Virus record (IMG/VR): IMGVR_UViG_2740892369_000023
DNA: 4,269 bases
Reading direction: 5' to 3' (one strand)
Origin: a virus
Taxonomy: Duplodnaviria; Heunggongvirae; Uroviricota; Caudoviricetes
The notes under the pieces are model-generated. The model did not search any database. It was not told the origin of the DNA and was given only the letters and a program-made list of their open reading frames with translations. This document shows, piece after piece, positions 44-4,269 of the stretch. Numbering within the stretch: position 1 is the first letter of the stretch; every line of letters starts with the position of its first letter. The translations under genes and the position numbers were made by a program.

Positions 44-985
44 CTATTGCCAGTACACCTCATTGTCACTGGAAGGCGGGTGGCCAACGCCAATCTTGTA
101 GGCCGGGACACGGAACACCGAACAGACAATTTCAGCCGTCATTTTCAGTTGTTCCACCGTCTGCGCATCCACCGGTGAAAACGTCGTGGGGCTGTATTTT
201 GCCCCGTTGCTCAGTATGGCCGTCTTCCCGGCATTTTCGCCCGTATATCCGCTGTCCCAGTTCCCCTTCAGTTTTTTCGCGTTTTCTTCCGTAATACTGC
301 CGGGGACCTCAATCACGCCTGATGGTCGCCCGCCATTTCTGAAAAAATACGTCGAATTTGCCTGAATATGATGCCCCTGCATGGCGGCCAGTCCTGCGGC
401 ATACACCGGCGGCAGCCCCACAAGCGGATGAAAAAAACAGTTAAAACGGTCGTGGATCACCTCCCGGGCAGGCACCGTCACCGACTCTGTGATCCCACAG
501 TTCCGGTCCGGCGTGATGCGGTAGAACACGTCGCCGTCATCCGCCACCAGAGGTTCAACCCGGTTCCAGTCCAGAATACGCAGTTCTTTGATCTGCCCCC
601 GGGGGTTGCGGATTTTCAGCACCACCGTATTGCCGTGACGCAATTTGGAATTCAGCCACAGTTCAAAAAACTGGATGCGATTCTGCTGCGCATTAGGACG
701 ACGACAGAGACGGGCAGTATCTCCCTGCCGCTTTTCCCGGCGTATTCCCTGTACATCAGTCTGCATCAGGCGAAGCCGCATTTTGGCGATATCCTGGGAT
801 ATCAGCGAAATGCATGAAAACACCGCGTGAAAGGACAAAACGGTTTCCGGATCGGCTTTCACACCCTGCTGCCAGGCACCGGCAAAAGGCTCAGCCACCG
901 CCTGAAACAGGGACCGCCAGCCCACTTCTCTTACGTCACGTCCTGATTTCTGGTTTTTTCGGGTTCGCCGCAAAAGGTTCCACAT
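44..985 (-). CDS. Phage portal protein, HK97 family (possibly C-terminally truncated)
   Basis: 313-codon minus-strand ORF. ATG at 983..985 is preceded by GGAG (994..997) with an 8-nt spacer; an in-frame stop lies upstream at 1001..1003. Portal-family motifs: PETVLSFHAVFSCISLISQDIAKMRLRLMQ, DGDVFYRITPDRNCG, STYFFRNGGRPSGVIEVPGSITEENAKKLKGNWDSGYTGENAGKTAILSNGAKY, and SPVDAQTVEQLKMTAEIVCSVFRVPAYKIGVG. Stop TAG at 44..46, only about 12 residues after the last motif. Confidence 0.85.
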   Translation of the reverse strand: MWNLLRRTRKNQKSGRDVREVGWRSLFQAVAEPFAGAWQQGVKADPETVLSFHAVFSCISLISQDIAKMRLRLMQTDVQGIRREKRQGDTARLCRRPNAQQNRIQFFELWLNSKLRHGNTVVLKIRNPRGQIKELRILDWNRVEPLVADDGDVFYRITPDRNCGITESVTVPAREVIHDRFNCFFHPLVGLPPVYAAGLAAMQGHHIQANSTYFFRNGGRPSGVIEVPGSITEENAKKLKGNWDSGYTGENAGKTAILSNGAKYSPTTFSPVDAQTVEQLKMTAEIVCSVFRVPAYKIGVGHPPSSDNEVYWQ

Positions 986-1152
986 TCGCCATGCTCCGCA
1001 TCACGTTTCTTTTTCTGACCTGCCGGACGTCGCGCTGTGATGTACTCCGCCTTCCCCAGGCGAACCAGCACCTCCGCACACGGCTGTGCCACATCACGGA
1101 TATCCCCGGCCCGGGCATCATGCGTGCCCTGCAGATACTGGATTTTTGCCAT
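931..1152 (-). CDS. Hypothetical small protein (73 aa) in the capsid-portal gap; uncertain
   Basis: Minus-strand ORF MAKIQYLQGTHDARAGDIRDVAQPCAEVLVRLGKAEYITARRPAGQ... with coding-like GC-rich codon choice in its first ~45 codons. It has no convincing Shine-Dalgarno at proper spacing, overlaps the portal start by about 55 nt in another frame, and I recognise no family. It could be a remnant. Confidence 0.2.
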   Translation of the reverse strand: MAKIQYLQGTHDARAGDIRDVAQPCAEVLVRLGKAEYITARRPAGQKKKRDAEHGECGTFCGEPEKTRNQDVT

Positions 1153-1196
1153 CTGTTACTGCGGGAAGCTCGCGCCTCCCGCCCTCCTCATCAGAC

Positions 1197-2558
1197 TCAG
1201 CCACCGGACGCAGTTCCGTAGTTCACACCGGTGATCACCGCCACTGCCGCGGTACGGCGACGACGCCAGTTGATCCAGCGCTCCGCACGGATGGCCACGC
1301 TGCCGGTCTGAAACATGGAGACCAGTTCCACCGGTGACGGTGTGCTGCTGTCGCTGGTCGGTTCAGACTGCATCTCCAGTGACGCTTCACGGGACATATC
1401 CACCGCCACACCGCCGTCATCAGCCAGATAAATATCCGGTGCATTCACCAGTACCAGCTGGTCACCCACATACTGGGAGACAATCACCGGCAGCCCCTGG
1501 AAGGTCCCGCCCAGCAAGGTCATGTCCGGATATTCCTTCTGCCCCAGCGCATTTTTACGCATGGACAGCGCCAGGGCATTGGTGCTGGACATCAGCCAGA
1601 CCGCACCGGTGGGCTGCAGATTTGCCGTCACAAACTGGCCAAACGCGGCCTCGGCATCCGCATCCGGGTTACCGGTTGATGCCGTGCCCTTCACATCATG
1701 GGTGATGGACGCCGGGGAGACATCCGCCACCGCCGCTTTTTTCGGGTCCACAAAGTCTGTGTCCAGACGCGCCACCACCGCTTCCGCCAGCGCATTACGG
1801 ACCAGTGCATCAGCAGCCGGACTGGAAAAACGGATCAATTCTTCCGTCAGTACCGCAATGGCCGACACTTTCGCATGACTGAAGGTGATGGATTCAAAAT
1901 CAAACTTCGTCAGGGGTCTGGCCTTACCCTCACCCACCCAGCCGGCAGCACCACCGGACACCTGGGCATGCACGCGGATATTGAACGGCACCTGACGAAG
2001 TGCAGGGATCCCGCCCTGACCAAATCGCCCGATAATGGTCTGCGGACGCAGGTAATCAATAAAGTCCTGCGCATATTCCTGGTATTCAGACAGGCTGCCT
2101 GCCCACTGCGGGTCCGTGGTGGTCCCTGCCCCCACCGCCGATTTCAGGACATGATGCAGACGGCTGTCATCCGGATACTGACGACGGGCCACTTCCAGGG
2201 CTTCAGAGCGGACACCTTTAGCCGCGGCCAGTGATTTGGCAAAGCGGGCGAAACCAATCCCCTTCTCCAGTTTCTGCTCAACACGGATCACCGGCGCTGA
2301 AGCCACCGTGGCCACATTCCCGTTACCGGCCTGTTTCACCGGCTGTGCCGTGGCGGCCTTACTGGTTTCCAGTTCACGCAGACGCTTCAGGTGCGCATCC
2401 ACCTGACGGATTTCCGCTGCGGTGTTGTCGTAGTGCTCTTCCTCTTCCACATCCAGTGTGCGGCCTTCCTCTGCGGCTTTGTTCATGATCTCCTCAAGGG
2501 AGGCTGCCAGCGCCGCACGCTTGTTTTCAAAACTTTTAATCTGTTCACCAGTATTCAT
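1197..2558 (-). CDS. Possible nested in-frame product: major capsid protein with its delta/scaffold domain, initiated internally at Met193 of the fusion ORF
   Basis: In-frame ATG at 2556..2558 (minus strand) preceded by AGGA (2569..2572, 10-nt spacer), sitting in a local AT-rich patch (2556..2600) that looks like a former intergenic region. The N-terminus MNTGEQIKSFENKRAALAASLEE resembles a capsid-protein delta-domain start. Hypothesis only; the full-length fusion may be the sole product. Confidence 0.3.
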   Translation of the reverse strand: MNTGEQIKSFENKRAALAASLEEIMNKAAEEGRTLDVEEEEHYDNTAAEIRQVDAHLKRLRELETSKAATAQPVKQAGNGNVATVASAPVIRVEQKLEKGIGFARFAKSLAAAKGVRSEALEVARRQYPDDSRLHHVLKSAVGAGTTTDPQWAGSLSEYQEYAQDFIDYLRPQTIIGRFGQGGIPALRQVPFNIRVHAQVSGGAAGWVGEGKARPLTKFDFESITFSHAKVSAIAVLTEELIRFSSPAADALVRNALAEAVVARLDTDFVDPKKAAVADVSPASITHDVKGTASTGNPDADAEAAFGQFVTANLQPTGAVWLMSSTNALALSMRKNALGQKEYPDMTLLGGTFQGLPVIVSQYVGDQLVLVNAPDIYLADDGGVAVDMSREASLEMQSEPTSDSSTPSPVELVSMFQTGSVAIRAERWINWRRRRTAAVAVITGVNYGTASGG

Positions 2559-3134
2559 TGCTGACTTTTCCTTATGAAAAGAGGTTATTGACTGTGCCGA
2601 AGCGCCGGCAGAAGATGCGATTTTCACCACCGGTTTCCGGTTGCCGGACGCGGCAGAAAACGGGCGGTCGTAAGATTTAATGGTCCGGATGGTGCATTCC
2701 GCATTCGCGGGCACGGTGACGGCAGACACCTCCATCAGCTCCCAGCGCAGAAAATGCAGTCCGCCTCCGTCCAGATAAGTGTATTCATGGGGCCGGAAGC
2801 CCACAGAAAGCCCCCTGACCAGCCCGGTCTTAATGGCAGCCCAGGCCTCATCCAGCCGGGCTGCCATCTGGGAGGGCATCCCCGGCTCCGGCTTCACCAG
2901 CATTGCCGTGATTTCCAGCCCTTCCCTGACCCGACGCACCGTACACTGGCCTACAGGGCGGGAATGGTCATGCTGCCAGAGAAACGGGATCGTACTGCCA
3001 AACTCCGCCCCCTCCGGCTCCAGGATGTCACCATCCCGATCCGGAGAAGGCGTTGACGCAATCCCGGTGATCACCCGTTCATCCTCACTGAAGGATTTCA
3101 CCGTCAGCAGGGAACAGGCCCGTTTAAGAGTCAC
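1197..3134 (-). CDS. Prohead maturation protease (HK97 gp4-like, peptidase S78/U35) fused in frame to a scaffold/delta-like linker and an HK97-fold major capsid protein
   Basis: 645-codon minus-strand ORF. Start is GTG at 3132..3134, preceded by AGGAGG (3140..3145) with a 5-nt spacer; no in-frame ATG exists between the terL stop and this GTG. Residues 1-160 carry prohead-protease motifs: GIASTPSPDRDGDIL, WQHDHSRPVG (His codons at 2970..2972 and 2964..2966) and RGLSVGF (Ser codon 2805..2807), then EVSAVTVPANAEC. Residues 193-260 are charged and coiled-coil-like (EQIKSFENKRAALAASLEEIMNKAAEEG ... LKRLRELETSK). Residues 330-645 look like an HK97-type capsid protein (QTIIGRFGQGGIPALRQVPFNIRV, SAIAVLTEELIRFSSPAADALVRNALAEAVVARLDTDFV, and a C-terminal SVAIRAERWINWRRRRTAAVAVITG). 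Stop TGA at 1197..1199. Confidence 0.9.
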   Translation of the reverse strand: MTLKRACSLLTVKSFSEDERVITGIASTPSPDRDGDILEPEGAEFGSTIPFLWQHDHSRPVGQCTVRRVREGLEITAMLVKPEPGMPSQMAARLDEAWAAIKTGLVRGLSVGFRPHEYTYLDGGGLHFLRWELMEVSAVTVPANAECTIRTIKSYDRPFSAASGNRKPVVKIASSAGASAQSITSFHKEKSAMNTGEQIKSFENKRAALAASLEEIMNKAAEEGRTLDVEEEEHYDNTAAEIRQVDAHLKRLRELETSKAATAQPVKQAGNGNVATVASAPVIRVEQKLEKGIGFARFAKSLAAAKGVRSEALEVARRQYPDDSRLHHVLKSAVGAGTTTDPQWAGSLSEYQEYAQDFIDYLRPQTIIGRFGQGGIPALRQVPFNIRVHAQVSGGAAGWVGEGKARPLTKFDFESITFSHAKVSAIAVLTEELIRFSSPAADALVRNALAEAVVARLDTDFVDPKKAAVADVSPASITHDVKGTASTGNPDADAEAAFGQFVTANLQPTGAVWLMSSTNALALSMRKNALGQKEYPDMTLLGGTFQGLPVIVSQYVGDQLVLVNAPDIYLADDGGVAVDMSREASLEMQSEPTSDSSTPSPVELVSMFQTGSVAIRAERWINWRRRRTAAVAVITGVNYGTASGG

Positions 3135-3146
3135 ATCAGCCTCCTG

Positions 3147-3172
3147 AAAATAAAAAAACCGCCGCAGCGGTT
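3147..3172 (-). terminator. Possible weak intrinsic terminator or attenuator between terL and the protease-capsid gene
   Basis: On the minus strand, just after the terL stop: CCGC-TGCG-GCGG (4 bp GC stem, 4 nt loop, extendable by two A-U pairs; plus coordinates 3157..3172) followed immediately by TTTTTTTATTTT (plus 3147..3158). Short stem, so it is weak at best. Confidence 0.3.
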
Positions 3173-3197
3173 CATGATGGTTACAGGGTGAGCAGGG

Positions 3198-4269
3198 TTA
3201 TATGAAAAAAACCTCATACGCTTTCTTTTTCGGTTCCGGATTCAGGGACATCAGGGACACCGCATTGAAGAGCGCCATCAGCGGGTCAATTTTTCCCCGT
3301 CCGCTGGCCTGTTTGGTGATAAGAATGGCGTTACCTTTAGGCTCCACCCGGGCATTACCGACACACCAGGCCATCAGGGGCTGATCACCGTGAATCAGCA
3401 CCCCTTCAGCCAGTTTGCGCTCGGTGGTTTTGATGGCCCCGCCCAGCTTCCAGCCCTGGCTTATCCCCACCACACTCTCATCGGGGATCCCGGCTTCCGC
3501 CAGTGAATCCAGAATCTGCCCCACACCTGACGGGTCAATACCGATATGATCCAGTAACTCAGCCTCATGAATACGACGCACATACTCCGCCACTTCCGCC
3601 GTGTCATCCCCGACCCGACGGACAATCGTCATGTCTCCACAGGCCACAAAATCCTGAAACCGGGATGCCTCACTCTTCCGTCTGACCACCGCGGTTTCAT
3701 GCACCCAGGCATGGCCCCAGCCCAGCCATTCGCGGGTTTCCCTGTCACGGCCAGTCACGTACATTCCCAGCAGATCATCCAGGCCCCCGCCGTCAATCCC
3801 CACCGTCACCACATCAGCGCGCTGCAGGATATCGTCCAGGCTGACGCGCCTGCCCTGCTGCTCCCAGAAATCCGCGCCCGCCCAGCGGTCAGAACGCAGG
3901 GCAAGACCGATTTCCACATTGGCGTGTTTTGACATGACGCCACGAAATGCTTCCTCACCAGCCTCCCGGGCTTTACGGTACTCCCGGTACAGAAAGGCCT
4001 CATCCACCGAATAACCGAGATTCGGGTTAACCATGGCGAGGTTTTCCATCAGCAGGTGAGCCCCGCTTTCCACCATTTCAGGAGGATGCTCAAAAATCAC
4101 CGGCAGAAAGTGCGGATCATGAATTTTGCCGTCACGGACATCCCGGGCATACTGCAGTTTCTGTCTGAACACCCCGGCGGGCGGTTCATTCGACTGGGTG
4201 GTCGTATACACCACAAACCCTTCCGGACGGGAGGCCAGCCCGCCGATGGCTTCACGTAGCATGTCTTCC
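3198..4269 (-). CDS. terL: Phage terminase large subunit, C-terminal portion (partial; 5' end lies beyond the window edge)
   Basis: Minus-strand ORF open to the window edge; the Met at 4262 in the ORF track is only the first in-frame ATG, and the two codons upstream of it (to 4268) are also sense codons. The translation has terminase large-subunit character: an acidic nuclease-domain stretch (VVTVGIDGGGLDDLLGMYVTG, then HIGIDPSGVGQILDSLAEAG) and a typical C-terminal tail (LMAWCVGNARVEPKGNAILITKQASGRGKIDPLMALFNAVSLM). The N-terminal ATPase (Walker A) region is not in the window. Stop codon TAA at 3198..3200. Assignment is by recalled motifs, not a search. Confidence 0.85.
   Translation of the reverse strand, partial: EDMLREAIGGLASRPEGFVVYTTTQSNEPPAGVFRQKLQYARDVRDGKIHDPHFLPVIFEHPPEMVESGAHLLMENLAMVNPNLGYSVDEAFLYREYRKAREAGEEAFRGVMSKHANVEIGLALRSDRWAGADFWEQQGRRVSLDDILQRADVVTVGIDGGGLDDLLGMYVTGRDRETREWLGWGHAWVHETAVVRRKSEASRFQDFVACGDMTIVRRVGDDTAEVAEYVRRIHEAELLDHIGIDPSGVGQILDSLAEAGIPDESVVGISQGWKLGGAIKTTERKLAEGVLIHGDQPLMAWCVGNARVEPKGNAILITKQASGRGKIDPLMALFNAVSLMSLNPEPKKKAYEVFFI

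Follow-up and report, generated by a model that had tools for sequence, protein, structure and literature searches.

In bacteriophage lambda, the C locus encodes a head protease in the N-terminal part of a long open reading frame (ORF), and an internal in-frame start gives rise to Nu3, a shorter product that ends at the common stop codon and is needed in larger amounts during procapsid assembly, with translation setting the ratio (bioRxiv 10.64898/2026.09.13.751334). For gp17/gp17.5 of the archaeal virus HFTV1, initiation-site Ribo-seq and mass spectrometry demonstrated nesting of the same kind, the C-terminal part being 7.8 times more abundant, and gpO of phage P2, in which a protease is joined to an assembly domain and removed by self-cleavage, is reported as a full-length product only (bioRxiv 10.64898/2026.09.13.751334). 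In HK97 the protease gp4 and the major capsid protein (MCP) gp5 are encoded separately, and the delta domain of HK97 was the source of the analogy for a scaffolding role used below (PMC10275583). We analyzed a stretch of 4,269 nucleotides from a virus of the Caudoviricetes (IMG/VR record IMGVR_UViG_2740892369_000023), hereafter the window, in which a 645-codon ORF on the minus strand (3134..1197) fuses a prohead protease to an MCP. This ORF very probably consists of two nested in-frame genes, one for a 69-kDa protease-MCP fusion and one for a 48-kDa MCP precursor. Alignments with relatives showed internal initiation signals at what would be the ancestral start position of the MCP. From these signals we infer their use, the ratio of the two products, and a model in which both co-assemble.

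The full-length ORF (1197..3134, minus strand) begins with GTG, encodes 645 residues with a computed mass of 69.3 kDa, and is held in RefSeq as a single coding sequence (CDS) named "phage major capsid protein" (WP_044165271.1). Pfam, BLASTP, and AlphaFold placed an S78 protease domain of the HK97 gp4 type at about residues 9-156 (2667..3110, minus). Pfam family PF04586 (Peptidase_S78) matched residues 48-152 with 33.3 bits against a cut-off of 21, HK97 gp4 shared 30% identity with the domain (BLASTP, E=3e-9), and AlphaFold strands covered residues 9-139. His65 and Ser114 of gp4 aligned with His55 (in LWQH) and Ser110 (in GLSxGF), and both residues were invariant across 11 sequences with identity down to 33%. 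Because His55 and Ser110 align with the catalytic residues of gp4 and are invariant, the protease domain looks active. At the other end of the protein, an HK97-fold capsid domain at residues 386-635 (1230..1979, minus) was recognized by PF05065 (Phage_capsid; E=7.5e-15, 55.5 bits against a cut-off of 24.2), and solved structures gave a single weak capsid match (9d9w, E=0.003). Two further elements lay between these domains. The first was a hypervariable linker at about residues 157-192 (2559..2666, minus), predicted to be disordered from alignments and from the predicted local distance difference test (pLDDT) of the model; its alignments had many indels and low conservation, and in all fused relatives it was in frame and without stop codons despite these indels. 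The second was a pair of long helices at residues 195-222 and 229-261 (2352..2552, minus) in the AlphaFold secondary structure. The AlphaFold model was poor (mean pLDDT 44) and was used for domain boundaries only. In this low-confidence model, residues 141-193 had pLDDT values of 23-32, lacked secondary structure, and were modelled as disordered, and the long helices began at residue 195, two residues past Met193, with a local pLDDT of about 69-76. By analogy with HK97, the helices were taken to be an N-terminal scaffolding (delta-like) domain of the MCP.

The proposed nested gene (1197..2558, minus) starts at Met193 and would encode an MCP precursor of 453 residues (48.4 kDa) that has its stop codon in common with the fusion; it was proposed on the basis of conserved initiation signals. 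Read on the minus strand, the site is ...TTTTCAT AAGGA AAAGTCAGCA ATG AAT ACT GGT GAA..., or, in codons, CAT AAG GAA AAG TCA GCA ATG AAT ACT GGT. Sequence inspection and a pattern search placed a Shine-Dalgarno (SD) core, AAGGA (2569..2573, minus), upstream of the in-frame ATG (2556..2558, minus). The spacer between AGGA (2572..2569) and ATG was 10 nt (2568..2559), or 7 nt when aligned to the anti-SD. Both elements lay in an AT-rich, weakly structured patch (2520..2579, minus), where the GC content was 0.30 compared with an ORF mean of about 0.59; this was the minimum of the whole 1.9-kb ORF, and it was centred 1 nt from the ATG (offset -1). The least-structured 61-nt segment of the ORF was found 12 nt 3' of the ATG, with a minimum free energy (MFE) of -4.1 against a mean of -18.0 and a standard deviation of 5.2. 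The Met193 site was located at the boundary between the protease fold and the capsid part, with a Pfam domain on either side. A first-pass annotation of the window had pointed to AGGA 10 nt upstream of this ATG, to local AT-richness, to a position at the protease-capsid boundary, and to products of about 69 and 48 kDa; the pattern search matched the motif exactly, and the GC profile, the domain limits, and the computed masses agreed with the other points.

Met217 (window 2486, site 2484-2497, minus; 24 codons into the capsid part) was also considered as a start and rejected. Its GAGGAG had a spacer of only 3 nt, and the context was GC-rich and structured. Met217 was invariant among close relatives, which is accounted for by the conserved helical domain in which it lies, and it is probably not a start codon. 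An internal promoter for a separate capsid mRNA, like that of UL26.5 in herpes simplex virus (HSV), was set aside as well, since sigma-70-like sites were absent throughout the window. A search of Rfam returned no relevant RNA family.

We further investigated if the internal signals were kept among relatives. From 113 loci in GTDB genomes and IMG/VR, 77 distinct fused junctions were obtained, which came from gamma-, beta-, and alphaproteobacteria and covered identities of 31-100%. A start codon was present at the aligned position in 77/77 junctions (75 ATG, one GTG, and one TTG), and an SD core (AGGA, GGAG, GAGG, AGGG, or GGGA) was found 4-12 nt upstream in 76/77. This was the homolog comparison that the first-pass annotation had proposed as a check on the ATG and its upstream motif. 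The ORF-wide GC minimum lay no more than 20 nt from the internal start in 69 of the 77 junctions. Among the first 26 loci, the GC minimum was within 16 nt of the start in 22 relatives, and the structure minimum was within 21 nt of it in 21. At the protein level, 141 fused cluster representatives (from the search described below) were compared: 112 had Met at the aligned column, and 126 had one no more than 4 residues from it, compared with a chance expectation of about 20%.

We also looked at what the boundary codon and the SD core encode. Where the boundary residue was Val instead of Met and the DNA was fetched, the codon was GTG in 7/7 cases; an SD preceded it by 6-9 nt, and the ORF had its GC minimum no more than 22 nt from it. 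When a Reyranella locus was added, the boundary Val was GTG in 8/8 (chance 1.4e-4, given the Val codon usage of each ORF). Four more representatives that seemed start-less had GTG a few codons from the aligned column, after AGGAGA, AGGAGG, AAGGA, or TGGAGA, so that every boundary Val inspected at the DNA level was GTG with an upstream SD (12/12). Since the boundary Val was always GTG, selection appears to act on the start codon and not on methionine. The SD core itself occurred in different codon phases (two among the 77 junctions) within the hypervariable linker. It encoded K-E in the window, and other Enterobacterales had K-G, Q-G, or T-G there. In Phlomobacter the residues were Q-E, relatives from alphaproteobacteria and metagenomes had P-K-E-G, P-E-E-G, or P-E-G, and L-E and S-G-A occurred in further relatives. 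When the 20 codons upstream of the start were shuffled, the probability of an SD of equal strength and good placement was 0.000-0.30 per sequence. Third-position GC (GC3) was followed along a codon alignment of 102 unique fused CDSs and had its minimum of 0.35 at residues 182-187, the ribosome-binding region just 5' of the internal start, compared with a mean of 0.65, and it stayed low up to about residue 200. As these are synonymous sites, the GC3 minimum is not explicable by amino-acid composition.

These data bear on the possibility that a need of the protein, such as a site cut by the maturation protease or a demand of the linker, preserves Met and the K-G or K-E before it, with AT-richness following from Lys and Asn composition. 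Lys is indeed common just 5' of the Met, and the window sequence alone cannot tell a peptide constraint from a nucleotide constraint. However, AGGA, GGAG, or GAGG is retained across different codon phases while the encoded residues vary widely, the only substitutes for Met are Val encoded by GTG and Leu encoded by TTG (other Val codons, 0/12), and synonymous third positions are AT-enriched. We consider a constraint on the protein very improbable. Because codon phase and residues vary, Val is always GTG, and synonymous sites are AT-enriched, the constraint appears to fall on the RNA and not on the protein. Judged from these comparisons, the initiation signals show purifying selection at the nucleotide level across a large and old family of fused genes.

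The position of the internal start was also compared with relatives in which the two proteins are encoded by separate genes, namely Moraxella phage Mcat3, Stenotrophomonas phage SOVA965, and Snodgrassella prophages. Met1 of the MCP in each of these aligned with Met193. The spread of the fusion was then determined. The 90%-identity cluster of the window protein had 9,916 member sequences, and an exhaustive search without profiles, which covered 1.84 billion representatives of clusters at 50% identity, gave 1,180 matches at E<1e-30, among the best 150 of which 141 were fused proteins of about 630-680 residues. A neighbour-joining tree built from the capsid part had fused genes of Enterobacterales, alphaproteobacteria, and betaproteobacteria across its deep nodes, and the split forms consisted of one outlying clade and one lineage nested among the fused genes. 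Taken from this distribution, the fused state is evidently widespread and old. The suggestion in the first-pass annotation of a nested in-frame capsid gene thus gained support from the Met1 alignment of split relatives, the conservation of start and SD, the GTG and TTG substitutes, and the AT-enrichment of synonymous sites.

The split relatives also make a two-gene ancestor plausible, and with it the idea that translation proceeds from the upstream start alone, giving protease and capsid protein at 1:1 with self-cleavage; the internal SD and ATG would then be a relic of the two-gene state, no longer in use. The strong upstream SD (AGGAGG, -10.3 kcal/mol) fits such a polyprotein, the internal motif is unremarkable in a single sequence, and the idea is contradicted by no protein data. 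A relic, however, should decay. Since the fused state is old and sits at deep nodes of the MCP tree, unselected signals should have been lost, yet the start was kept in 77/77 junctions and the SD in 76/77, down to 31% identity and in linkers that are otherwise unalignable, the boundary Val was GTG in 12/12, and GC3 reached its gene-wide minimum at this site. A polyprotein with a relic start is therefore quite improbable, and we continue with two nested genes as the preferred explanation.

Two phages deserve separate mention. The record of SOVA965 (3681-5086 of its locus) shows the capsid gene as two CDSs that overlap in different frames. The phage has a separate protease gene, although the tree places it within a group of fused relatives; the arrangement may reflect a sequencing frameshift or a true secondary split. 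PAJU2 is an isolated phage whose ORF003 belongs to the same gene family and was annotated as "prohead protease fused capsid protein", the gene being called a structural protein by the depositors. The equivalent internal Met of the ORF003 protein is preceded by P-Q-E-G, a run that can encode the SD-like CAGGAGG, the SD in this case being deduced from the peptide.

Several observations weigh against nested genes. In the window, AGGA-N5-10-ATG was not enriched (5 matches compared with 3.1 expected, and at least 5 in 46/200 shuffles), and the internal anti-SD pairing of -6.2 kcal/mol was only moderate, ranking 14th of 115 start codons in the ORF. Because the matches were near chance and the SD energy ranked 14th of 115, the motif in one sequence is not evidence; the site stands out by its position, its lack of local structure, and, most of all, its conservation. 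Four of the 141 representatives (P0134, P0136, P0139, and P0156), judged from protein, had no evident start up to 4 residues away. Part of the AT-richness could stem from a linker rich in Lys, Asn, and Thr, and the GC3 result argues against composition as the whole cause. The window copy lies in a prophage remnant with a portal gene cut by IS600, and the gene is possibly never usefully expressed in this genome. At the upstream start, the SD was stronger than the internal SD in most relatives, and ribosomes that elongate from there cross the internal site and may occlude it. The MCP-to-fusion ratio is accordingly uncertain and is the weakest part of the model.

The two initiation sites were next compared directly. 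The upstream initiation region (3132..3145, minus) consists of AGGAGG (3145..3140), a 5-nt spacer, and GTG (3134..3132), with an anti-SD pairing of -10.3 kcal/mol. Relatives had A/TGGAGG (TGGAGG in most) and ATG at this start, and the window copy had GTG. The ratio was estimated with a crude sum in the style of a ribosome-binding-site (RBS) calculator, composed of SD pairing, start codon, spacing penalty, and local unfolding. With folding from -35 to +35, which includes the upstream hairpin, the internal site was stronger in 24/26 relatives, with a median of about 42-fold (about 19-fold for the window). With folding from -18 to +35, it was stronger in 21/26, with a median of about 3-fold (about 5-fold for the window). 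The internal site was favored in the estimate because it is almost structure-free. The crude prediction is thus that MCP is favored over the fusion, in direction only. The first-pass annotation had expected abundant capsid protein and a minor amount of fusion; the thermodynamic estimate agrees with the direction of this expectation, and the stronger upstream SD speaks against it.

Both starts may be used, but with at least as much fusion as free capsid protein, so that initiation at the internal site would do no more than top up the latter. This fits the stronger upstream SD in most relatives, possible occlusion of the internal site by elongating ribosomes, and an estimate that swings from about 3- to about 42-fold with the folding span and points the other way in 2 to 5 of 26 relatives. 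However, the estimates favored the internal site in 21 to 24 of these 26, the upstream codon of the window is GTG, which is generally weaker than ATG, and the inner product is in excess in known nested protease/scaffold systems (7.8 times in HFTV1; bioRxiv 10.64898/2026.09.13.751334). We regard a major or equal share of the fusion as unlikely.

A terminator-like hairpin with a T-run (3147..3173, minus) was found between the stop codon of the large terminase gene (terL) and the upstream SD. The GC-rich hairpin and the T-run that follows it have the sequence GAACCGCTGCGGCGGTTTTTTTTATTTT. The hairpin was kept in most relatives (L003-L036), including those from Moraxella, Burkholderiaceae, and Candidimonas, with changes on both sides of the stem, and in the HK97 record (L131, 3309-3335) a putative terminator is annotated just before protease gene 4. 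Its role is possibly that of a terminator, an mRNA stabilizer, or a modulator of the upstream start.

With two nested genes, translation from the upstream AGGAGG and GTG would yield the 69-kDa protein, composed of the S78 protease, the disordered linker, the scaffolding domain, and the HK97-fold capsid domain, and independent ribosome binding at the internal AAGGA and ATG in the AT-rich, unstructured patch would yield the 48-kDa capsid precursor alone. Both products would co-assemble in the procapsid through their identical capsid parts, each fusion subunit bringing one protease domain inside the shell, so that covalent tethering would do what non-covalent targeting does for a protease made as a separate protein, such as HK97 gp4. 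Once the procapsid is assembled, the protease would cut off the linker, the scaffolding domains, and itself. How much protease each capsid receives would depend on how strong the two initiation sites are relative to each other. A broader version holds that the whole fusion family (hundreds of 50%-identity clusters in Proteobacteria, including Stx-converting phages) is a two-start dosing device, in which competing initiation sites fix the number of protease copies per capsid, the hairpin at the upstream SD is part of the device and throttles or conditions the upstream start or the transcript, and the dose is tuned by transcription read-through and translation. We put this broader version forward tentatively, as it is doubtful at present that all of it holds.

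All genes of the window are on the minus strand. The 3' part of terL (4262..3198) is followed by the 645-codon protease-capsid ORF, a 73-codon ORF (1152..931), and the 5' part of the portal gene (985..44). The window DNA was identical or nearly identical to lambdoid prophages of enterohaemorrhagic Escherichia coli (EHEC) strains (O26, O103, and others) and to records of phages converting to Shiga toxin (Stx) 1a and 2c. The portal gene is truncated by an IS600 copy, the end of which makes up window bases 1-62. In genomes with a 100% match (e.g. E. coli 97-3250), genes for the NleG family and for EspW, effectors of type III secretion systems (T3SS), replace the head-completion and tail genes (L129, 2863-4985). 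Because IS600 truncates the portal gene and tail genes are missing in the 100%-matching genomes, the window copy is a defective prophage remnant, with the protease-capsid ORF still intact.

The state of this copy raises the question of whether the fusion is an artefact, produced by stop-codon loss or frameshift in decaying prophages while functional phages keep two genes. Besides the truncated prophage of the window with its IS600-cut portal, the copy of strain EH031 has a portal gene flagged as frameshifted by the Prokaryotic Genome Annotation Pipeline (PGAP). This explanation is hard to reconcile with the 9,916 members of the 90%-identity cluster, the 141 fused proteins among the best 150 representatives of 50%-identity clusters, and a linker that stays in frame despite indels. 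The fused gene also occurs in complete Stx1a- and Stx2c-converting phage records and in the isolated phage PAJU2. An artefact or pseudogene is thus extremely improbable.

The neighbors of the fused gene were examined in the same relatives. The order seen here (terminase, protease-capsid, small ORF, portal; window 44-4262, L001 13339-19797) was common to all relatives seen, including the split Mcat3 and SOVA965 as well as PAJU2; the order in HK97 is terminase, portal, protease, capsid. The 73-codon ORF (931-1152, minus) follows the capsid gene and extends 55 nt into the portal gene; it had no match in a Pfam search. Relatives (L121, L122, L119, L120, and PAJU2 ORF004/005) had small ORFs of about 70-110 codons at its place. 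At another locus (L001, 13339-15923), a 2.6-kb portal gene was annotated as "frameshifted" by PGAP. The DNA there consists of a 454-codon portal ORF that is joined by an ATGA overlap to an ORF of 407 codons, in which a unit of about 55 residues is repeated in tandem three to four times (IPVPADGKSITPDDVRPMLEQMVKEAVSHIPAPRDGRDYDPEVLKQAVNDAVAN). The 407-codon ORF looks like a gene for a separate, repeat-rich head protein and not the result of a frameshift.

The fused protease-capsid architecture is already recognized by annotators. In the searchable literature, papers on protease-capsid fusions treated the ORF as a single protein, without an internal start or two products, and reports of ribosome profiling, N-terminal sequencing, or western blots were found for no member of the family. 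An internal start that yields free capsid protein in protease-MCP fusions was not found in searchable full-text literature, and an earlier mention in subscription literature is possible. If the nested reading is true, thousands of genes annotated as "major capsid protein" or "prohead protease" would be two nested genes, among them the head genes of the long-tailed Stx1a- and Stx2c-converting phages of EHEC. The nested protease/scaffold strategy of lambda, herpesviruses, and an archaeal virus would then extend to phages in which the scaffold is inside the capsid protein. A limited number of proteases would be brought into the procapsid by covalent tethering to a minority of capsid subunits, which would also be a natural design for cargo loading into HK97-type shells.

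Compared with known systems, the locus shares separate features with each. As in HK97 gp4 and gp5, the protease is of the S78 family, the MCP is of the PF05065 family with an N-terminal domain that is predicted to be helical, and a hairpin precedes the protease gene. Pairwise BLASTP of the two MCPs gave no significant similarity. The HK97 genes, however, are separate (stop at 4025, start at 4028) and follow the portal gene, whereas here one ORF precedes it. As in P2 gpO, a protease is covalently joined to an assembly domain, but the conserved internal initiation signals indicate that the window gene, unlike gpO, would also give a nested product. HSV UL26/UL26.5 and HFTV1 gp17/gp17.5 likewise combine a full-length protease with a shorter product ending at the same stop codon. 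Their inner product is scaffold only, their hosts and protease families differ, and in HSV the shorter product depends on a separate promoter and transcript and not on an internal SD. A parallel in layout is lambda C/Nu3, in which a long ORF has an N-terminal maturation protease and an internal start with its own ribosome-binding site leads to the common stop codon; for the window gene, it is the signals of such a start that are conserved. The nested product of lambda is scaffold only, and its capsid protein gpE is encoded by a separate gene, whereas protease, scaffold, and coat are here combined in one ORF. The lambda protease is not known to belong to the S78 family. The likeness to C/Nu3 drawn in the first-pass annotation thus held for the nested in-frame layout and not for the product, which would be capsid protein with a scaffolding domain. 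Because the nested product is not scaffold alone, the window gene is not a member of the C/Nu3 family, but a distinct variant that would work in the same way.

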